Assembly: GCA_964566075.1 (NCBI GenBank) | Contig: CAZMHJ010000001.1 | Span: 9,890 to 72,796 of the forward strand | Length of the DNA: 62,907 nt | Reading direction: 5' to 3' | Source of the DNA: an uncultured Candidatus Saccharibacteria bacterium | GTDB taxonomy: Bacteria; Patescibacteriota; Saccharimonadia; Saccharimonadales; CAIOMD01 | In this document: in pieces, positions 1-48,991 of the stretch | Layout: every line of letters starts with the position of its first letter | How positions within the stretch are numbered: position 1 is the first letter of the stretch | Notes under the pieces: model-generated | Database searches by the model: none | What the model was told of the DNA's origin: nothing | The model's input: the letters and a program-made list of their open reading frames with translations, nothing else | Program-made: the position numbers and the translations under genes

Positions 1-2691
1 GCGGGCAATAACACCCTTGTTACCGTGACGTCCAGCTAACTTGTCACCAACTGCAACTTTACGCATTTGGGCAACAAACACCTGAATTTGCATAATCACA
101 CCTGCTTTAAGCTCATGGCCAGTGGCTCGGCTAAAGACTTTTACGCCAACAACCTTACCATGCTTACCATTGCTCATACGCTGAGATGTGTCGCGAACTT
201 CTTTCGCTTTTTCGCCAAAGATAGCGCGTAGTAGACGTTCTTCGCTACTAAGCTCTTGCTCACCTTTAGGGGTAATCTTTCCAACTAGGATATCGCCTGG
301 GTGTACTTCGGCACCAATACGGACAATACCGTCTTCGTCTAGATGACGAAGTGCTTCTTCTGAAACATTTGGAATATCACGAGTTACAACTTCTGGCCCA
401 AGTTTGGTTTCGCGAACTTCGGTCATGTAGTCAACAATATGTACGCTGGTAAAGACATCTTCTTTAACAAGTCGTTCGCTAATAACCACGGCGTCTTCAA
501 AGTTGTAGCCACCCCATGGCATAAATGCCACAAGCACGTCTTTACCAAGTGCGAGTTCGCCATTCTGGACACTCATACCTTCGATAAGAACATCACCAGC
601 CTTAACTGCGTCACCCGAGTTAACAACCACTTTTTGGTTGATGCTCGAACCTTCGTTGCTACGCTGGAAGTGCATTGGGTGGTAAGTCTTTTTAACCTTA
701 CCGTAGTCAACAACAACTTCATCACCACTTGCTTTGGTGACGGTACCGTTGTCTTCTGCAAGCACAATTTGGCCTGAGTTACGAGCCACGACAGATTCCA
801 TACCGGTACCAACGGTTGGTGCAGCTGGGTTAATCAGTGGAACTGCCTGACGTTGCTGGTTTGAGCCAATAAGGCTACGAAGCACGTAGTTCTTTTCAAT
901 ATAAGGAACAAGTGCGGCACTTGAACCGATAATCTGTTGTGATGCTGCGTCCACGTGAGTGACATCGTTTGCATCAACTTCTGCGGCAGCAAGACGAGCA
1001 CGAGCAGACACACGAGGGGCGATAAAGTAACCGTTGTTGTCAACTTCGGTACCTGCACCTGCAATAACTGCTTTTTCTTCTTCACTTGCGTCAAGATAGA
1101 TAACCTCTGTCGTAACCTTAGCCTTTACTGGCCAGGTAATCTTTGCTTTGACAGCTTCTAACTTTTTAACATCAGCGGCGCTAATAGTGGCGCCTTTTTT
1201 AACAATCGTTTTGCCTTTTTCATCTTCTAAATCTACAGCGGCAATGTGGCCAGCTGCATCTTTAGCAGGGACAGCGTTAATAACCTTACGATATGGTGTC
1301 TCCAAGAAACCATATTCGTTAATGCGCGCATAACTTGCCATATTAAGTACCAAACCAATGTTGGCACCTTCTGGCGTTTCAACCGCACAAATACGACCAT
1401 AGTGAGTCGCGTGTGCGTCACGTACTTCAAATCCTGCACGTTCGCGTGATAGACCACCAGGACCCATCGAACTAAGGCGTCGCTTGTGAGCGAGCTCAGA
1501 AAGTGGATTAATTTGGTCCATGAACTGGCTGAGCTGTGAACTTGCAAAGAATTCGCGGACAGCAGCAACAACTGGGCGAGCATTAATAAGCTGACCAGGG
1601 GTTACGGTTTCGATTTCGCTCATAGACATACGGTCTTTAGCGTTTCGTTCCATGCGAAGTAAACCGATACGGAACTGGCGTTGTACAAGTTCGCCAACCA
1701 ATTTCACACGGCGATTAGCCAAGCTATCAATATCGTCAGCTGGCTCTTGTGTGTTATTAAGTCGAATAACTTCAGCAACAATTGCAATTAAGTCTTCAAG
1801 ACGCATAACACGGTTTTCAACGGTGTTTGGTACGTCAAGGTCAAGACGCTTGTTGATTTTATAGCGCCCAACACGACTAAAGTCAAAACGCTTGAAGTTG
1901 TAGAACATGTTTTCTAACAAGCTACGAGCGTTATCAACGGTTGCAAGATCACCTGGGCGCAAACGACGATACACCTCAATCAAGGCTTCGTTGCTACCCT
2001 TAGCTGGGTCTTTTTCAAAAGTTGCGTCGATGTAGTTGAGTTTGCCAGTATCGACGTGCTTAACAGCGTCGCGGATAGCGGTTTCACTCATACCAAGTGC
2101 TTTAAATAAGGTAGTAACCGCAATCTTACGACGACGGTCAATCTTTACATATAATGCACCACTAGCAGCGGTTTCAAACTCTAACCATGCACCACGGTTT
2201 GGAATAACCTTAGCACCGTACAAACGGTGACCGCCATGATTTTCGCCTGTAAAGAACACACCCGGGCTACGAATAAGCTGGCTAACAACTACACGCTCTG
2301 CACCGTTGATAACAAAGGTGCCGCGGTTCGTCATCCATGGGTAGTCGCCTAGGTAGATTTCTTGTTCTTTTACTTCGCCTGTTACCTTGTTAGTCAATTC
2401 TACAACTGCCTTAAGTGGCGCGTCGTAGCTAACGTTATTTTCTCGGGCCTCAGATTCAGTAATCTTTGGTTCCTCAAAATGGTAACTCTTGAAACTTAAT
2501 GAAAGTTTGGTACCGGTATAGTCATCTATTGGACTTACTTCGGCTAAAAGCTCGCCTAAACCTTCGTCAACAAACCACTGGAAGCTCTTGTTCTGGTGGT
2601 CTACGAGGTTAGGCAGGCTGATATCATCACTTTTTGTGTAGTAGATGCGCTGCGATTGCGCAGTTGTACTCTTGGCTGCTGTCTTGGCCAT
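1..2691 (-). CDS. rpoB: DNA-directed RNA polymerase beta subunit, N-terminal 897 codons; the 3' end runs off the window start
   Basis: Minus-strand frame is open from ATG (2689-2691) to position 1. It is absent from the ORF track because no stop lies in the window. My translation starts MAKTAAKSTTAQSQRIYYTKSDDISLPNLVDHQNKSFQWF and contains GTFVINGAERVVVSQL, SQLSQFMDQINPLSELAHKRRLS and GLSRERAGFEVRD. Confidence 0.95.
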   Translation of the reverse strand, partial: MAKTAAKSTTAQSQRIYYTKSDDISLPNLVDHQNKSFQWFVDEGLGELLAEVSPIDDYTGTKLSLSFKSYHFEEPKITESEARENNVSYDAPLKAVVELTNKVTGEVKEQEIYLGDYPWMTNRGTFVINGAERVVVSQLIRSPGVFFTGENHGGHRLYGAKVIPNRGAWLEFETAASGALYVKIDRRRKIAVTTLFKALGMSETAIRDAVKHVDTGKLNYIDATFEKDPAKGSNEALIEVYRRLRPGDLATVDNARSLLENMFYNFKRFDFSRVGRYKINKRLDLDVPNTVENRVMRLEDLIAIVAEVIRLNNTQEPADDIDSLANRRVKLVGELVQRQFRIGLLRMERNAKDRMSMSEIETVTPGQLINARPVVAAVREFFASSQLSQFMDQINPLSELAHKRRLSSMGPGGLSRERAGFEVRDAHATHYGRICAVETPEGANIGLVLNMASYARINEYGFLETPYRKVINAVPAKDAAGHIAAVDLEDEKGKTIVKKGATISAADVKKLEAVKAKITWPVKAKVTTEVIYLDASEEEKAVIAGAGTEVDNNGYFIAPRVSARARLAAAEVDANDVTHVDAASQQIIGSSAALVPYIEKNYVLRSLIGSNQQRQAVPLINPAAPTVGTGMESVVARNSGQIVLAEDNGTVTKASGDEVVVDYGKVKKTYHPMHFQRSNEGSSINQKVVVNSGDAVKAGDVLIEGMSVQNGELALGKDVLVAFMPWGGYNFEDAVVISERLVKEDVFTSVHIVDYMTEVRETKLGPEVVTRDIPNVSEEALRHLDEDGIVRIGAEVHPGDILVGKITPKGEQELSSEERLLRAIFGEKAKEVRDTSQRMSNGKHGKVVGVKVFSRATGHELKAGVIMQIQVFVAQMRKVAVGDKLAGRHGNKGVIAR

Positions 2692-2882
2692 AAAAAAGCA
2701 GATCTCCTGTTATTGATTGATATGTTTTACCTTATTTTGCGCGCGAAGGTTAACTAAGCGGGTATTGTTTGAGCACTCGTGATTTGGAGACACGCGAGCA
2801 CTGGCCCGATTACACTACTTCTTAATACTAAGTCTATAGACTCTGTAAAACAATGTAAAGATTACTACTATGTAGTTTTTAC

Positions 2883-2938
2883 AACCTCTTTCGCCGTTTA
2901 CGGCTCATCAGTACGACTATTACATTCGTATAGAGATT
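2883..2938 (-). ncRNA. Type III hammerhead self-cleaving ribozyme, copy 1 (predicted cleavage between 2931 and 2930)
   Basis: Minus-strand RNA reads AAUCUCUA^UACGA-AUGUAAUAG-UCGUA-CUGAUGA-GCCG-UAAA-CGGC-GAAA-GAGGUU. The full catalytic core is present. Stems I and II are loop-closed and stem III is open. The stems covary with copy 2. Confidence 0.8.
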
Positions 2939-2939
2939 T

Positions 2940-2973
2940 CCGCCTCGAGGCCGAACTAAATGGCCTCGGGCGG
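2940..2973 (-). other. GC-rich 12-bp stem-loop (clamp A1) directly 5' of hammerhead copy 1
   Basis: Minus-strand CCGCCCGAGGCC-AUUUAGUUC-GGCCUCG(A)GGCGG. It is conserved with 4863..4896. No U-tract follows, so it is not a canonical intrinsic terminator. Confidence 0.7.
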
Positions 2974-2994: not shown

Positions 2995-3162
2995 TTATTT
3001 GGGCCTGTATTTAATAGCAGCAGCAAGTGTCACTACCATTATCAAAAGCCCAAGTGCCGAAACGATGAATAGTGTCGGCACAATAGCTTGTGGCCAGAAC
3101 GAGTACTCCATACTGAGCACAAGTATGAAAGTTATGAAAGTGAGTACTTGAACAGCCTTCAT
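2995..3162 (-). CDS. Small membrane protein, 55 aa (hypothetical)
   Basis: Below the ORF-track size cutoff. ATG at 3160-3162 is preceded by GGGAGAAAT. Translation is MKAVQVLTFITFILVLSMEYSFWPQAIVPTLFIVSALGLLIMVVTLAAAIKYRPK, with two hydrophobic helices and TAA at 2995-2997. Confidence 0.55.
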   Translation of the reverse strand: MKAVQVLTFITFILVLSMEYSFWPQAIVPTLFIVSALGLLIMVVTLAAAIKYRPK

Positions 3163-3191
3163 ATTTCTCCCTTCACGTCAGGAGATGATGG

Positions 3192-3479
3192 TTACTTAAC
3201 CACTTGTTTTGACTCTCGCGTGAAAAGCAACATCGCGAGAGGCGATACAAGTGCACCAGCATAGAACCAATACGGTTCAACTACCGTACCAAGTCCAAAG
3301 AAGCACACTGTAAACACGATGAGCCCTAGCGCGATAAGGAGCCATTGCCATCCATTAAACACAAGAACGGGGTTACCCTGATAGTCGGGGTGGCCACGCT
3401 CAATTACGACAGCGAACAGCACGAACAAGCTCATGACTGCCCATGCAGTTGCGACTGCACACATCAGACCAGTCAACAT
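3192..3479 (-). CDS. Small membrane protein, about 95 aa (hypothetical)
   Basis: Track ORF 3192..3494 uses a TTG start. I prefer ATG at 3477-3479, preceded by GAGGGTGAGG. The protein has several hydrophobic helices. Confidence 0.6.
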   Translation of the reverse strand: MLTGLMCAVATAWAVMSLFVLFAVVIERGHPDYQGNPVLVFNGWQWLLIALGLIVFTVCFFGLGTVVEPYWFYAGALVSPLAMLLFTRESKQVVK

Positions 3480-3548
3480 GTACCTCACCCTCAACCTATA
3501 TCGACGATGAATACAGGTATTATATAGTAACTCAAAATTAAAACGACT

Positions 3549-3582
3549 CGCCCACTCGATATGTCTTTATCGAGGGGCGGGT
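3549..3582 (-). repeat. 34-nt palindromic repeat (hairpin B1), identical to 4341..4374
   Basis: cgcccactcgatatgtctttatcgaggggcgggt forms a stem of about 13 bp with one A/G mismatch. It lies downstream of CDS 3618..3932, and on the minus strand GUCGUUUUAAUUUU follows. Confidence 0.75.
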
Positions 3583-3617
3583 GTATGTTGGGTAAAGGAA
3601 CAGCTAGTGTCCATGCT

Positions 3618-3932
3618 TCACCCTGTCAGATTTTCACGCCTGTCGTCCGGCATGCGGCGAAGCCACTTGAGTTCCTGGAAGAATAGCCACGGCCCAACAA
3701 AGACCACAGCTATTCCAAGTATCTTGCCTTCGCTATCGAGAACCGAAGGCGCAAGCAAGAAGATGACCACCGCTACGAAGATGAACGTCACAGCAATCAA
3801 AGCAATCTGCTTTCGCTCAGGTGCGCTTAGAAGATCACGAGGCAACATCACGCCGTAATCAAGTGCAAAGGCGAGAGAGATTAGCCCATAGAGCACCGCG
3901 AAACTTGCCAGTGCACTCAGCACAAACTGCAT
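3618..3932 (-). CDS. Small membrane protein, 104 aa (hypothetical)
   Basis: This is the C-terminal part of track ORF 3618..4166. ATG at 3930-3932 is preceded by GGAGGACTC. The sequence MQFVLSALASFAVLYGLISLAFAL... is hydrophobic. The upstream part of the track ORF overlaps 3941..4216 and looks non-coding. Confidence 0.6.
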   Translation of the reverse strand: MQFVLSALASFAVLYGLISLAFALDYGVMLPRDLLSAPERKQIALIAVTFIFVAVVIFLLAPSVLDSEGKILGIAVVFVGPWLFFQELKWLRRMPDDRRENLTG

Positions 3933-3940
3933 GAGTCCTC

Positions 3941-4216
3941 CTAGTAGTCGTCTTCGTTGGGCAGATGGGTACGTTGTTCCTGCTTTATCTCTTCGATGAC
4001 TGGGATGTAGATAACCGGTAGTAACATGACCAGCGTGACGAGCCCTGCAAGTACCGCTCTTGGCGTCATGCGCAGCTCTGGCCACAGAATGATGAACATG
4101 GCCACGAGGCAGATTGACATGCTGGTGCAAGTCTTCGAGAATCGGTCGTACCACATGCCTCGCCACATGCGACGATGGACTTCAACAAACATAATCCGAA
4201 AAGGTACGGTTTTCAC
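3941..4216 (-). CDS. Small membrane protein, 91 aa (hypothetical)
   Basis: Track ORF with a GTG start preceded by GGAGGAG. It has two hydrophobic helices and an acidic tail. Its stop lies 8 nt before the next ATG. Confidence 0.6.
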   Translation of the reverse strand: MKTVPFRIMFVEVHRRMWRGMWYDRFSKTCTSMSICLVAMFIILWPELRMTPRAVLAGLVTLVMLLPVIYIPVIEEIKQEQRTHLPNEDDY

Positions 4217-4392: not shown

Positions 4393-4737
4393 TTAGCCCA
4401 TGTCATTCATGATGTCATCTACGATGCGCTTTGCCATCGCATTGTACTTTGCGTCTTCCTTGCGGAAGCGCCTGTACCAGAACACGGCGTCATAGATGAA
4501 CCATACGGTGACTAGAGCCACCACTACGGTGAAGATGGTGAAGAACGTCACGCGATCGGCAGGCATATCCCTGCCAAAACTCGTTGCCGATGTCATGACC
4601 ATACTGCCAATCAATCCTGCAGAGGCGAAAAATCCAGGGCCAGGCCTACCGTACTTCGTCTTACCCTTGAAGTAGCTCGCCACTCCGACAGCAATGAACA
4701 GCAATGCGAGAACCAGTGCCGGAATTCCTGCGCTCAT
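4393..4737 (-). CDS. Small membrane protein, 114 aa (hypothetical)
   Basis: Track ORF with three hydrophobic segments and a charged C-terminus. Confidence 0.65.
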   Translation of the reverse strand: MSAGIPALVLALLFIAVGVASYFKGKTKYGRPGPGFFASAGLIGSMVMTSATSFGRDMPADRVTFFTIFTVVVALVTVWFIYDAVFWYRRFRKEDAKYNAMAKRIVDDIMNDMG

Positions 4738-4779: not shown

Positions 4780-4807
4780 ATTATATCATCTTTTTTTGAT
4801 TATTCAA
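4780..4807 (-). promoter_or_regulatory. Sigma-70-like promoter with extended -10 for CDS 4393..4737
   Basis: Minus strand reads TTGAAT (4807..4802), a 16-nt spacer, then TGATATAAT (-10 at 4785..4780). The -35 overlaps the 3' strand of hammerhead stem III. Confidence 0.5.
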
Positions 4808-4861
4808 TCTCTTTCGTCGTTTACGACTCATCAGAACGACTACAAAATTCGTTGAGAGATT
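4806..4861 (-). ncRNA. Type III hammerhead self-cleaving ribozyme, copy 2 (predicted cleavage between 4854 and 4853)
   Basis: Minus-strand RNA reads AAUCUCUC^AACGA-AUUUUGUAG-UCGUU-CUGAUGA-GUCG-UAAA-CGAC-GAAA-GAGAUU. The core is identical to copy 1. There are compensatory pair changes in stems I and II. Confidence 0.8.
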
Positions 4862-4862
4862 T

Positions 4863-4896
4863 CCGCCACGAGGCCGATAATTATGGCCTCGGGCGG
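4863..4896 (-). other. GC-rich 12-bp stem-loop (clamp A2) directly 5' of hammerhead copy 2
   Basis: Minus-strand CCGCCCGAGGCC-AUAAUUAUC-GGCCUCG(U)GGCGG. Same stem as A1, with a different loop and a different bulged base. Confidence 0.7.
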
Positions 4897-4932
4897 GAAC
4901 AATTTCGGAGTTCGTGAAGACCTAGTGACAGA

Positions 4933-5253
4933 TTAAGCCGAGACCTGATCTGTCTGCTCGCTTTTGAGCACAGTACGGATGCGATCAACATTGAGGCCAA
5001 GCCCGTAGACCACATAACCGCACGATATGCTGAGTGGTATCCAGATCGCTAAGCCATAGCTTCCCTGCACGTGCATGAATATTGCAAACACAAGCACCGC
5101 ACTTTCCAGGACCAGCAGCCCGATACTACCCGCGAGGTAGAAGGATGCCCTGATGATGCGCGTCCGTTCAAGCACGGCTCGAGCGAAATTGATGCATGCA
5201 ATTGCACTCAGCATCAGACAGATGAAGAAAACCAAAACGATTGGTAGATACAT
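4933..5253 (-). CDS. Small membrane protein, about 106 aa (hypothetical)
   Basis: Track ORF 4933..5256 starts at GTG. The adjacent ATG at 5251-5253 has GGAG 8 nt upstream. The protein has three or four hydrophobic helices. Confidence 0.65.
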   Translation of the reverse strand: MYLPIVLVFFICLMLSAIACINFARAVLERTRIIRASFYLAGSIGLLVLESAVLVFAIFMHVQGSYGLAIWIPLSISCGYVVYGLGLNVDRIRTVLKSEQTDQVSA

Positions 5254-5304: not shown

Positions 5305-5334
5305 ATTATATCATATAGCTTATGCTTTTGTCAA
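5305..5334 (-). promoter_or_regulatory. Sigma-70-like promoter with extended -10 for CDS 4933..5253
   Basis: Minus strand reads TTGACA (5334..5329), an 18-nt spacer ending in TGA, then TATAAT (5310..5305). Confidence 0.5.
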
Positions 5335-8226: not shown

Positions 8227-8598
8227 TTAAGCGAATCTAGTTGTAACCTCTAGGCTGAGTCGTGTAACTGCTCCCTCTAGCGCGGCGCATAGCGCTCTAG
8301 CAGTTGAAGGCGATGTAAGCCCTCTGGCGCGATTCATGGTTACCGAATCATCACCTGCTAAAAACAGGTAACCGTTTCGTTGTAACCAAATCAGTGCACT
8401 GGCTAAATCTTCTTCTGAGGCAAACGGATAACGACCCGAATGCTCAGGGCCAAAGAGCATGTAATGATGCACGAGCGTTTCTAAGCTAATGACATCACCG
8501 TCTTTATCGGTACTTTGTTCTAAGCCGGTACTTAATAAAAAATGTACAACATCTGCTCGGGGCTTACGTGCTCCGAGCATCACTGCAGTCATATTCAT
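8227..8598 (-). CDS. Hypothetical protein, 123 aa
   Basis: Track ORF, 2 nt downstream of 8601..8807. No recognised motif. Confidence 0.5.
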   Translation of the reverse strand: MNMTAVMLGARKPRADVVHFLLSTGLEQSTDKDGDVISLETLVHHYMLFGPEHSGRYPFASEEDLASALIWLQRNGYLFLAGDDSVTMNRARGLTSPSTARALCAALEGAVTRLSLEVTTRFA

Positions 8599-8600
8599 AC

Positions 8601-8807
8601 CTACACACTTTCGGTGGTCGCAATAAATGCGAGCGGAGCTTTATCGATAAAAATTTGTGATTGTTGTGTAGTTGCCGGGAAAGTAAGTGCCTCATCAATA
8701 TGGTAATGACGGCGGCGTAACACTTCGGCACGCCTATGAAACTGTCCCTTTACTTGGTAGATGTTGTTTGTACGCTTGTTGGTTTTTGTAGATATATGAT
8801 TAGTCAT
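8601..8807 (-). CDS. Hypothetical small basic protein, 68 aa
   Basis: Track ORF preceded by GAGGAGGAGA. Forms a tight two-gene unit with 8227..8598. Confidence 0.45.
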   Translation of the reverse strand: MTNHISTKTNKRTNNIYQVKGQFHRRAEVLRRRHYHIDEALTFPATTQQSQIFIDKAPLAFIATTESV

Positions 8808-8881: not shown

Positions 8882-9036
8882 GTTTCTGCACTAACATACA
8901 AATTTAGAGTGGGTTCGCTACTAGCTCGACAATGTACAAGCGACCAACGTACGTACACTGCTTCGTTGCTTCTAAATTGTTAAAGTGCTCACACTTCTAC
9001 CTTCATTATACTCCGTGTCGTCAAGAAAGAAAGACA

Positions 9037-12018: not shown

Positions 12019-13272
12019 CTATTTTATTGCAATTATAACTTGAGCGTTTTTGCCCCTGCGCAGCACAGCATAGCCGTTAATTGCGTCATCAGTGTCAAGC
12101 GTTGTTTTACTAAGTGGTATTTGCGATCCATTAACGTAAATTGCATTGCTGTCTAAAAATCGTCGAGCTTCACCCTTGCTACTTGCCAACCCAGCATCAA
12201 CTAGTGCGCCAGCCAGATCTACACCAGCAAATGCTTCAAACACACCCAGTTCATTTCCAAGCGCTTCGAAATCTTCAACAGTTAGCTCAGTGTACGCACG
12301 GGCACCAAACAGTACTTCGCTAATACGCTTAACACTCTCTGCGCGAGCTTCGCCATGGACAATCTTAGTAACTTCGTACGCAAGTGTTTTTTGCGCTAAG
12401 CGGCCGGCCTTGTCTTGTTCAAACTCAGTTATTAACGATTCTATTTCTTCTTTTGAAAGGAGTGTGTAAACCTTAAGGTAATCTGCAACACCTTCATCAT
12501 CAACATTAAGCCAAAATTGGTAGAACTGATATGGAGTTGTAAGCTCAGGGTCAAGCCATACTGCGCCTGCCTCACTTTTACCAAACTTTTTACCTGTTGC
12601 CTTGTTAATTATGAGCGGGGCACTCCAAATGTGAGCTTCTCCCCCCGCAATACGGCGAATAAGTTCAACACCCGCGATGCTATTCCCCCATTGGTCAGCA
12701 CCACAAACTTGCAGCGTTACTCCATGCTCACGATATAAATGCAAAAAATCATAACCTTGAATGAGCGAATAGCTAAATTCGGCATAGCTAATACCAGCGC
12801 CATCTTCACTTAATCTGCTTTGTACAAATTCGCGGCCAAGCATTTGCCGCATAGGTACGTGTTTACCAACATCACGCAAGAACTCAAGGTAATTAAGCCC
12901 CTTAAACCAGTCGTAGTTGTCAACCATCTCAACACTATAGCCAGCAAAAAGTTGTTGATATTGTGCTGCAATACCTGCTTTGTTGGCATCAACTTCTTCT
13001 ACGGTTTTTAAATCACGCTCTTCTGATTTACCATCTGGGTCACCAATTAAGCCGGTCGCGCCCCCAACTAATAAGATTGGTTTGTGACCAGCCATAATAA
13101 AATGACGAATCATCATACTCATCGCTAATTGGCCAATGTGCATCGATTTTGCACTTGGGTCTACACCCCAATAAAACGTTATCGGCTCGCCATCGAGTAT
13201 TGTTATGTCTTGAAACGTAGTTTGGTTTACAAAGCCACGCCACTGCAGTTCTTCTGAAAGTTTTGTATCCAT
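12019..13272 (-). CDS. tyrS: Tyrosine--tRNA ligase
   Basis: HIGH-like SMHIGQ, KMSKS-like KFGKSE and a C-terminal S4-like domain. The start is set to ATG 13270-13272 (MDTKLSEELQWRGF...). The track's N-terminal extension reads through a tRNA gene. Confidence 0.92.
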   Translation of the reverse strand: MDTKLSEELQWRGFVNQTTFQDITILDGEPITFYWGVDPSAKSMHIGQLAMSMMIRHFIMAGHKPILLVGGATGLIGDPDGKSEERDLKTVEEVDANKAGIAAQYQQLFAGYSVEMVDNYDWFKGLNYLEFLRDVGKHVPMRQMLGREFVQSRLSEDGAGISYAEFSYSLIQGYDFLHLYREHGVTLQVCGADQWGNSIAGVELIRRIAGGEAHIWSAPLIINKATGKKFGKSEAGAVWLDPELTTPYQFYQFWLNVDDEGVADYLKVYTLLSKEEIESLITEFEQDKAGRLAQKTLAYEVTKIVHGEARAESVKRISEVLFGARAYTELTVEDFEALGNELGVFEAFAGVDLAGALVDAGLASSKGEARRFLDSNAIYVNGSQIPLSKTTLDTDDAINGYAVLRRGKNAQVIIAIK

Positions 13273-13290
13273 ATCTGTTGTATATGGTAA

Positions 13291-13321
13291 CAAAACAAAA
13301 CAAAAACCCCAAAAAGGGGTT
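13291..13321 (-). terminator. Intrinsic terminator between tRNA-Leu and tyrS
   Basis: Minus strand reads AACCCC-UUUUU-GGGGUU followed by UUUGUUUUGUUUUGUU, ending about 20 nt before the tyrS ATG. Confidence 0.65.
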
Positions 13322-13328
13322 CTTGTTT

Positions 13329-13413
13329 TGGTACCGCGGAGAGGACTTGAACCTCCACGTCTTGCGACACTAGCTCCTAAGGCTAGCGTGTCTACCAATT
13401 CCACCACCGCGGC
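13329..13413 (-). tRNA. tRNA-Leu (anticodon UAG), class II with long variable arm, CCA encoded
   Basis: GCCGCGG-UG-GUGGAAUUGGUAGACAC-G-CUAGC-CUUAGGA-GCUAG-UGUCGCAAGACGU-GGAGG-UUCAAGU-CCUCU-CCGCGGU-ACCA. The cloverleaf was folded by hand. Discriminator is A73. Confidence 0.9.
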
Positions 13414-48164: not shown

Positions 48165-48991
48165 AGATGATGCCTTACCACCTCAACCAAGATAACTGCG
48201 GCAACACCAGCAACAACCCATTGGGTCACTAAAATAGGAAGGTGTGCCAATTTATCTTCGGTTCTAATTGCCGGTGGTGGGCCAATTTTACTGTAGCCTT
48301 TTTTCTTTGTTTCCCAGACGCCATAACTATAGTAATAGCCAATGGTCATTACCATACTGTGTAAGAACCCTTGGTTGACTCGTCGGCTCGATGTATACAC
48401 AGGATTATGTAGTGTTATGTAGACACGCCCATTATGAATAAGTTCGTTTCGTACACCACGCTCATCAGCCCCTTGGTAAAATCGAGTGTCATAGCCAGAA
48501 AAAGCTGATTTTCTAAAACTAAGATTTGCAGCCGAGACATACACGGGGCGATGGTTTAAAAGCGATAACAACCACACACCTAGTGCTCCCATAGGTGGCA
48601 TAATTTTTGCCCACAACGGTGCTTTATAGAAATAATAATGCCCGGCAAGACCCGAAGCACCTGGGTGTGAATCAAAAAATGCACCAATATATTCAAGCCA
48701 ATCAGGCCTAAAAAATGAATCCGCATCTGTTGAAACAATAATTTCGCCTTTTGCAGCTTTAAGCCCAGCTTGCCGTGCATGCACTACACCCTGTTCGGTT
48801 TCTAGAATGACGCGAGCGCCAAAACGCTTTGCAACCGCTGGTGTATCATCAGTGCTTGCATTATCGACGACGATGATTTCATGCGATGGCGCATTTTCTT
48901 GTGCTTGTAACGATTTTAAACAACGTGGCAAAAAATCTGCCTCGTTATAGGCAGGAATGACTATGCTGATTTTTGGGTTCGCAGTTTTCAT
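48146..48991 (-). CDS. Family 2 glycosyltransferase with C-terminal TM segments
   Basis: ISIVIPAYNE, DNASTDDT and STDADS. Confidence 0.82.
   Translation of the reverse strand: MKTANPKISIVIPAYNEADFLPRCLKSLQAQENAPSHEIIVVDNASTDDTPAVAKRFGARVILETEQGVVHARQAGLKAAKGEIIVSTDADSFFRPDWLEYIGAFFDSHPGASGLAGHYYFYKAPLWAKIMPPMGALGVWLLSLLNHRPVYVSAANLSFRKSAFSGYDTRFYQGADERGVRNELIHNGRVYITLHNPVYTSSRRVNQGFLHSMVMTIGYYYSYGVWETKKKGYSKIGPPPAIRTEDKLAHLPILVTQWVVAGVAAVILVEVVRHHLWRLPF

Follow-up and report, generated by a model that had tools for sequence, protein, structure and literature searches.

Hammerhead ribozymes with upstream hairpins at the ends of two small-gene units in a Saccharimonadales chromosome

The window analyzed here is a stretch of 62,907 nucleotides (nt) from an uncultured Candidatus Saccharibacteria bacterium. 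On its minus strand, between clpP and rpoB, it holds two copies of a module of about 92 nt, in which a hairpin is followed by a type III hammerhead ribozyme. From sequence, fold, and homologs, the two elements are very probably genuine hammerheads under selection. For the module, the proposed function is given somewhat better than an even chance: it would self-cleave read-through RNA, form a hairpin-protected mRNA 3' end, and uncouple neighbouring transcription units.

Sequence, fold, and homologs of the hammerheads

Copy 2 had been called a hammerhead in an earlier reading made from the letters of the DNA alone (the sequence-only reading), and it has all the sequence and topology features that define one. 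On the minus strand from 4861 to 4806, its RNA reads AAUCUCUC^AACGA-AUUUUGUAG-UCGUU-CUGAUGA-GUCG-UAAA-CGAC-GAAA-GAGAUU, where the caret marks the predicted cleavage site between C4854 and A4853. The core is complete, with C3-A9 = CUGAUGA at 4834-4828 and G12-A14 = GAA at 4815-4813. A15.1 (4812) is paired with U16.1 (4855), H17 is C4854 (a non-G), and the closing pair of stem II is G10.1:C11.1. The topology is that of type III: loops cap stems I and II, and both RNA ends lie in the open stem III. The Rfam type III model (RF00008) aligned to copy 2 from end to end with 42.6 bits (E = 1.1e-6). In copy 1, which lies 1,923 nt downstream on the same strand with five small genes between, the core and GAA are intact as in copy 2, and cleavage is predicted between A2931 (H17) and U2930; RF00008 gave this copy 25.4 bits with stem III mis-aligned. 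The parts of the two ribozymes are as follows.

4806-4861, minus strand: type III hammerhead copy 2 (sequence, Rfam RF00008, minimum free energy (MFE) fold, own covariance models)
4861-4855 with 4812-4806, minus strand: stem III of copy 2
4853-4849 with 4839-4835, minus strand: stem I of copy 2, loop 1 at 4848-4840
4827-4824 with 4819-4816, minus strand: stem II of copy 2, loop 2 (UAAA) at 4823-4820
2883-2938, minus strand: type III hammerhead copy 1 (sequence, MFE fold, own models), core CUGAUGA at 2911-2905

The copies differ at 9 of 56 nt, none of them in the core. From copy 1 to copy 2, two pairs are changed on both sides (1.1:2.1 from U:A to A:U and 10.2:11.2 from C:G to U:A), one stem III pair goes from U:G to U:A, H17 goes from A to C, and three loop 1 positions are changed. 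The list of differences in the sequence-only reading, including the unchanged core, was exact on this direct comparison. That reading had taken the compensatory changes as a mark of selection on the fold; the two-copy statistic is sound, and the roughly 40 homologs described below reinforce it. Among random derivatives of copy 1 with 9 substitutions, a fraction of 1.0e-4 kept the core and all pairs. MFE structures were calculated with ViennaRNA. For each 56-mer and each 92/93-mer they were the hairpin plus three-way junction, and copy 2 within a 221-nt context still folded into exactly these. When both regions were aligned, the repeat ran from the start of the hairpin to the last base of stem III and stopped exactly there, with unrelated flanks on either side, and a mobile element with terminal repeats or target duplications was rejected on this ground.

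The core pattern CTGATGA-N8-30-CGAAA was expected 0.2 times per window and observed 4 times. The two other matches (5150-5188, plus strand; 48447-48468, minus strand) were rejected, being inside coding sequences (CDSs) with neither stems nor a model score. A first covariance model of our own gave 67.9 bits for copy 2 and 64.0 bits for copy 1. A leave-out model was then made from a set from which the window copies and their nearest relatives had been removed, and the 62.9-kb window was searched with filters off; it scored copy 2 at 55.5 bits and copy 1 at 54.3 bits, and the next best match at 12.9. At the Rfam gathering thresholds, only a tRNA passes in the window. The gathering score of RF00008 is 48.5, which is the annotation threshold of one model and not a property of the ribozyme. 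The homologs checked against RF00008 scored 37-45 bits, all below 48.5, so that the whole Patescibacteria and phage subfamily escapes default Rfam annotation.

Homologs were sought in 185,579 representative genomes with a pattern in which stem I and most of stem II were unconstrained. Complete copies were found in three Candidatus Saccharibacteria metagenome assembled genomes (MAGs) and one Candidatus Yonathbacteria MAG, along with about 20 chance matches inside genes. A metagenome scan gave 41 loci, about 35 with complete ribozymes. The total is about 40 homologs from Patescibacteria genomes and metagenomes, and each of the three stems shows compensatory changes among them. When 31 distinct sequences were aligned with MAFFT alone, stem I was paired in 94.6% of cells (both-side changes in 6/6 pairs) and stem II in 99.2% of cells (double changes in 3/4 pairs), and the covariation score was 0.539 versus 0.166 in shuffles, of which 0/500 reached it, and 0.05-0.11 in slid registers. 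A model made from this alignment recovered ten more copies in known loci that the search pattern had missed. The inner stem III pairs had been frozen by the pattern, and variation there comes from the model-found copies, in which CUCU/AGAG is replaced by the compensated forms CUUU/AAAG, CUGU/ACAG, and CCUU/AAGG. With 38 distinct homologs, 89% of cells were paired, and double changes were seen in 14/17 pairs (stem I 6/6, stem II 3/4, stem III 5/7). The covariation score was 0.596 versus 0.174 in shuffles (0/500) and 0.06-0.11 in slid registers, and the pairings first proposed from the two window copies were kept in this covariance-model check.

The core is intact in nearly all homologs, stem III has only 4-5 base pairs (bp) in most of them, and the consensus is UCGGGA-UGUGUA-UCCCGA CUGAUGA GUCC-AAAA-GGAC GAAA. 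The window copies belong to a variant with a 5-bp stem I, a 9-nt loop 1 (AUUUUGUAG / AUGUAAUAG), and a UAAA loop 2, which is common to activated-sludge contig L042 and to L044/L079. Homologs mostly lie 13-190 nt 3' of an open reading frame (ORF) on the same strand, with another ORF after them, and eight loci hold two or three copies each in the same orientation, at spacings of 107 nt to 4 kb. A possible small ORF through the ribozyme, seen in some homologs, was rejected because the reading frames disagree between loci.

An apparent absence from phages was also rejected. The first viral scan was empty only because it required the CUCU/AGAG stem III, and broader patterns gave 53 and 29 viral loci. 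In the broader scan, this type III ribozyme was seen on 53 phage contigs of IMG/VR. The other 29 IMG/VR viral contigs (L135-L163) have hammerheads that share the stem II of the window copies (GYCG-UAAA-CGRC). Their topology is not that of type III and resembles type I, stem III being a hairpin on the downstream side.

Some atypical copies were seen in the homolog set. L039 2431-2491, L059 13029-13089, and L024 2054-2114 are variants with C10.1 and A11.1, a mismatch that closes stem II; each of them follows a canonical terminator hairpin with a U-run, and a standard copy is about 50 nt away. L028 548-608 has the core CCGAUGA (U4 to C) with a compensated CCUU/AAGG stem III and may be inactive or atypical. 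Other RNA families were matched on hammerhead contigs: LOOT RNA above threshold at L055 7823-7952 (57.2 bits) and DUF3800-I RNA at L051 958-1079 (44.1 versus a threshold of 44.2).

The upstream hairpin and pseudoknot

Each window ribozyme is preceded by a hairpin, at the positions given here.

4863-4896, minus strand: clamp hairpin of copy 2, 12 bp, bulged U at 4868, 9-nt loop, ending 1 nt before stem III
2940-2973, minus strand: clamp hairpin of copy 1 (sequence and fold)

The hairpin of copy 2 reads CCGCCCGAGGCC-AUAAUUAUC-GGCCUCG(U)GGCGG from 4896 to 4863. The sequence-only reading had described the same GC clamp before both copies with another loop and another bulged base, and these are indeed the only places where they differ: the stems are identical, and the differences are five loop bases and the bulged base. 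All 6 differences fall in the 10 unpaired positions and none in the 24 paired ones (P = 1.6e-4).

No U-tract follows the copy 2 hairpin, the tail being AAAUCUCUC, and the consensus terminator scan does not call it. This bears on the explanation that an ordinary terminator hairpin stands beside a chance or decayed sequence that resembles a hammerhead. A GC-rich hairpin 21-36 nt after a stop codon would suit that explanation, as would an Rfam score under the gathering threshold. However, the tail lacks the U-run that the neighbouring genes use with their hairpins, and the motif is complete, duplicated with compensatory changes, and covarying over about 40 homologs, so that this explanation can practically be discounted.

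An upstream helix is a regular part of the homologs. Most of the 38 distinct cellular and metagenomic copies have a stable helix that ends 0-4 nt before stem III. These helices are unrelated in sequence, and since the helix is nevertheless present, structure is what is kept. In the cellular set, the median z was -2.47 versus -0.04 in the control. In the phage contigs, a GC-rich terminal hairpin abutting stem III was found in 44/53 copies versus 11/53 control segments, with a median z of -3.33 for the adjacent 40 nt versus 0.01 in the control. The satellite-RNA-sized records in the IMG/VR scan are without the hairpin, and in two homolog variants its place is taken by a canonical terminator hairpin and U-run.

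A GAGGAG-type Patescibacteria subfamily has an H-type pseudoknot immediately 5' of the ribozyme; its third loop is A-rich, and the upstream helix forms its second stem. Stem 1 of the pseudoknot covaries (AAGGU/ACCUU, UGGU/ACCA, GGGU/ACCC, CAGU/ACUG, CCAG/CUGG, UAGA/UCUA). An anchored helix of at least 4 bp was found in 12/14 sequences, with a shuffle mean of 1.1, and 0/5000 between-sequence swaps reached 12. The pseudoknot-bearing loci are listed together.

L011 5150-5198, L039 4390-4437, L056, L055, L015, L051, L024, L059, and L065: pseudoknot 5' of each hammerhead

No Rfam match was obtained for the GAGGAG-type pseudoknot, and an automated pseudoknot scan of all homologs did no better than its controls. 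A pseudoknot in the window copies was rejected, because the linker is too short to cross the 12-bp stem; copy 2 offers only a 4-bp AAUU/AAUU pairing and copy 1 nothing convincing.

The upstream structure might instead be a sensor for a ligand or protein that switches the ribozyme, as an allosteric ribozyme or riboswitch that tunes the stability of the flanking mRNA. The pseudoknot subfamily speaks for it, as an H-type fold with an A-rich third loop is common in small riboswitch aptamers and stem 1 covaries. On the other side, the upstream helices are unrelated and have no conserved unpaired nucleotides for a binding pocket, the window copies have a plain 12-bp hairpin that is too long for a pseudoknot with a 4-nt linker, no Rfam aptamer is matched, and hairpin and ribozyme coexist in the predicted folds with no competition. 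A sensor is considered very unlikely.

More than one function is likely for the hairpin: it could keep the ribozyme from misfolding with the coding sequence, add stacking to stem III, which is short, and guard the 3' end left by the cut. A short stem III would favour release of the products, and the adjoining helix could compensate for it before cleavage by stacking.

Unit layout, proposed role, and genomic setting

Gene calls were taken from the identical contig L067 and mapped onto the window, and promoters and terminators were taken from a consensus scan of the window. The gene order is hisS-tig-clpP-106 aa-[module 2]-114 aa-83, 104, 95, 55 aa-[module 1]-rpoB-rpoC, where small genes are named by the length of their products in amino acids (aa). 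The genes and signals around the modules are given below in the direction of transcription.

5384-5359, minus strand: clpP terminator (consensus scan)
5305-5334, minus strand: promoter-like TTGACA-18-TGnTATAAT of the 106-aa gene, 12/12 matches, just after the clpP terminator
4933-5253, minus strand: gene for a 106-aa predicted membrane protein (ORF list, L067 gene call)
4780-4807, minus strand: promoter-like TTGAAT-16-TGaTATAAT of the 114-aa gene, first hexamer over the last 2 nt of stem III
4393-4737, minus strand: gene for a 114-aa predicted membrane protein (ORF list, L067 gene call)
4323-4307, minus strand: canonical terminator after the 114-aa gene (consensus scan)
4288-4260, minus strand: promoter-like TTGACA-17-TAAAAT of the four-gene unit (consensus scan)
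2995-4192, minus strand: four small genes of 83, 104, 95, and 55 aa (L067 gene calls, mapped)
2831-2859, minus strand: promoter-like TTTACA-17-TAGACT of rpoB, 24 nt after copy 1, kept in relatives without the ribozyme
1-2691, minus strand: rpoB, N-terminal 897 codons, running off the window (Pfam; full gene on L067)

The modules lie 36 and 21 nt 3' of stop codons. By the consensus scan, neither the 106-aa unit nor the four-gene unit has a canonical terminator between CDS and module. Lack of a hairpin-plus-U-run terminator and a module at the end thus coincide in exactly these two units; clpP and the 114-aa unit have canonical terminators. Copy 2 ends at the next promoter-like site and copy 1 ends 24 nt before one. 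The overlap of the 3' strand of stem III with TTGAAT, pointed out in the sequence-only reading, amounts to 2 nt shared with the match at 4807-4780. The same reading had placed copy 2 only in read-through RNA of the CDS at 4933-5253, and the layout agrees: the promoter-like site at 4807-4780 would start the next unit 3' of the ribozyme, and no canonical terminator stands between.

From this layout, the following course is proposed. A polymerase that started at the promoter of the 106-aa gene would read through the end of that unit, which is without an intrinsic terminator, and the hammerhead in the RNA would fold and cut itself between C4854 and A4853. The upstream mRNA would be left with the hairpin, AAAUCUCUC, and a 2',3'-cyclic phosphate, a 3' end that should resist 3' exonucleases. 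The downstream RNA would begin with a 5'-OH and be physically uncoupled from the upstream mRNA, and transcripts from the next gene's own promoter would begin past the ribozyme and stay uncut. Copy 1 would act in the same way at the end of the 83/104/95/55-aa unit, before the rpoB promoter, with its cut between A2931 and U2930.

Several points weigh against this proposal. Each promoter is no more than a match to the consensus. The MFE structure of copy 1 within 211 nt of sequence swaps stem III for another pairing, and the hairpin and stems I and II stay. The loops and stem I of the window copies are unlike those of the main family (6 bp, with the conserved loops UGUGUA and AAAA), and the loop-loop contact expected for fast cleavage is putative. 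The copy 2 score of 42.6 is below the curated gathering score. Since the module is missing in 3/4 relatives with 87-93% identical RpoB, the lineage can do without it. Analogy with other systems is what suggests a protected 3' end and the fate of the 5'-OH RNA.

The relatives in question (L078-L081, RpoB 87-93% identical) were used to compare the clpP-rpoB gap (window 5409-2691, minus strand), which is a variable slot in Saccharimonadales with 0, 1, 2, or 6 unrelated small genes. L081 has no gene there, L080 has a TPR gene, and L078 has a single 267-aa gene. In L079 (L044) the gap has two small membrane genes with a hammerhead after each, and this is the only relative in which the model found ribozymes. 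Since the gap content varies and the ribozymes occur only with the small-gene block, the modules travel with cassettes and are no conserved feature of rpoB. A role as a conserved regulator of rpoB was rejected, as there is no ribozyme upstream of rpoB in 3/4 close relatives and the rpoB promoter and leader are kept independently. Between the rpoB start and copy 1 (window 2692-2880, minus strand), the rpoB promoter-like site and a leader of about 140 nt (AAGAAGTAGTGTAATCGGGCAGTGCTCGCGTG...CTTCGCGCGCAAA) are strongly conserved in four Saccharimonadales contigs regardless of hammerheads, and the leader may be a structured 5' untranslated region.

The ribozymes could be active, or recently so, and still be passengers with no host role on phage-derived or mobile small-gene cassettes between clpP and rpoB. 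The variable gap, with small membrane genes and two hammerheads only in L079/L044 and the window, is in line with this, as are the frequency of the same ribozyme type with hairpin in IMG/VR phage contigs and the ties of bacterial hammerheads to prophages in the literature (PMC3088659, PMC6155905). Against it, the 9 differences between the copies spare the core and the pairs and nearly all homolog cores are intact, which points to purifying selection on activity. The ribozymes are regularly placed with respect to stop codon, hairpin, and next promoter, and the flanks of the modules hold no phage gene, no integrase, and no terminal or direct repeats. Carriage on a cassette is also compatible with a 3'-end function for the cassette's own mRNA. 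The passenger explanation is considered unlikely.

As another explanation, both ribozymes might excise a 1,923-nt RNA with the five small genes (A4853 to A2931), to be circularised by an RtcB-type ligase or by the ribozyme, as in retrozymes and viroid-like RNAs. Hammerhead product ends (5'-OH and 2',3'-cyclic phosphate) suit RtcB, and pairs or triplets in the same orientation occur in eight loci. However, the terminator at 4323-4307 and two internal promoters between the sites would make the 1.9-kb precursor rare, and the spacing of copies ranges widely across loci, as given above. The idea was raised by Perreault et al., who sought spliced or circular products of clustered bacterial hammerheads and found none (PMC3088659). 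Excision and circularisation are rated as highly improbable, a shade below the sensor.

The PHROG matches to tRNA synthetase and Clp genes had suggested a phage genome, which was rejected. On its Pfam content (tig, clpP, hisS, TyrRS, class A PBP (PBP1), radA, nusA, dnaE, gatAB, rpoB) and its RpoB relatives, the window is Saccharimonadales chromosome and not phage; the full RpoB on L067 is 81-84% identical to Candidatus Saccharibacteria/Saccharimonadales proteins. The small membrane proteins between clpP and rpoB had no Pfam or PHROG family match, and homology between the two small proteins that precede the modules was looked for and not found.

Two further features were observed elsewhere in the window.

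8897-8982, minus strand: near-threshold match to RF03170, the c-di-GMP-II-GCG variant riboswitch (46.0 bits versus gathering 47.9, E = 8.3e-6), between hisS and small ORFs at 8601-8807 and 8227-8598
12019-13413, minus strand: TyrRS ORF (12019-13407) overlapping a tRNA with a long variable arm (13332-13413)

The TyrRS family match begins at residue 48, and with the tRNA overlap this puts the real start further downstream.

Relation to known systems

The element is of a known kind, the clustered bacterial hammerheads next to small ORFs of 2010-2011. Clustered hammerheads in bacterial genomes and prophages were reportedly described by De la Pena and Garcia-Robles in 2010 and by Jimenez et al. in 2011. 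Type I and III hammerheads were reported in 2010-2011 from bacterial intergenic regions and metagenomes, with clusters flanking small non-conserved ORFs (PMC3088659, PMC6155905). Tandem bacterial hammerheads cleave polycistronic RNAs of about 2 kb in vitro (PMC3088659), and thousands of hammerheads are known from bacterial and phage DNA, the role of which reviews still call open (PMC6155905). Like the clustered prophage hammerheads (Perreault 2011), the window has several same-orientation copies within a few kb flanking genes or small-ORF blocks, and the role suggested for the former was to cut polycistronic RNA into shorter mRNAs. The context differs, being housekeeping in the window (tig-clpP...rpoB-rpoC) with no phage genes or integrase. 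The window copies are also type III, with a loop-loop design in which the contact is putative, in contrast to the pseudoknotted type II that is common in bacteria.

The nearest sequence is the ribozyme of sTRSV(+), the seed type of RF00008, which reads GUC^ACCGGA-UGUGCUU-UCCGGU CUGAUGA GUCC-GUGA-GGAC GAAAC and serves in the laboratory to give RNAs a defined 3' end and to trim the 3' ends of viral clones (PMC9519601). The core CUGAUGA...GAAA and C17 are identical and stem III is open; stem I is a hairpin of 5-6 bp with a U/G-rich loop, and stem II has 4 bp, a closing G, and a tetraloop. The consensus of the Patescibacteria homologs is almost superimposable on it. The module differs in being in bacterial DNA, in a single polarity, with no circular RNA replicon or rolling-circle context, and in its hairpin directly 5' of stem III, which the satellite-RNA records lack. 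The window copies differ further in the 5-bp stem I, 9-nt loop 1, and UAAA loop 2.

Compared with an intrinsic terminator, the module likewise has a GC-rich hairpin soon after a stop codon and before the next promoter. It differs in having no U-tract, and its 3' end would be made by RNA cleavage, with the polymerase continuing into the next gene. RNase III sites of phage T7 are cut at the 3' side of an intergenic hairpin, which separates the messages and leaves a protective 3' stem-loop. The module would likewise separate messages and leave the upstream mRNA its 3' stem-loop. Unlike those sites, it would cut itself, with no host enzyme, beside the hairpin and not within it, leaving 2',3'-cyclic phosphate and 5'-OH ends versus 3'-OH and 5'-phosphate. 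RiboJ is an insulator made of a hammerhead with a downstream hairpin. Such synthetic insulators and 3'-end trimmers also join a hammerhead to a hairpin for context-independent expression or a defined RNA end; the module is natural, and its hairpin is 5' of the cleavage site and would stay with the 5' product. By analogy, the module may do by itself what an RNase III site or a laboratory ribozyme insulator does.

A literature search returned no paper joining hammerheads with Saccharibacteria, Patescibacteria, or the candidate phyla radiation. The coupling to an upstream hairpin and the terminator-less unit ends are not mentioned in the main text of PMC3088659, and the papers of De la Pena and Garcia-Robles and of Jimenez et al. 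may mention the hairpin. Compared with the accessible literature, the host group, the housekeeping, non-prophage context, and the systematic upstream hairpin or pseudoknot in the terminator slot appear to be new.

To a ribozyme specialist, the hammerhead itself would be unsurprising; the unit layout and the hairpin coupling are what make its function testable. The locus is unusually readable, with three short units with consensus promoters, one normal terminator, and two modules. Layout and hairpin coupling in about 80 homologs turn "processing of polycistronic RNA" into a specific hypothesis. A broader generalization is put forward tentatively, at somewhat less than an even chance: a hairpin or pseudoknot 0-4 nt 5' of a type III hammerhead with a short stem III would be a conserved, protein-independent device for 3'-end formation and insulation, shared by phages and Patescibacteria and placed in the terminator slot. 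The subfamily is absent from standard annotation, being below the Rfam threshold. If the broader generalization is true, the module would be a self-contained analogue of the T7 RNase III sites or of the MALAT1 triple-helix 3' end, and bacterial hammerheads, the role of which has been open since 2010, would gain a concrete and testable job.

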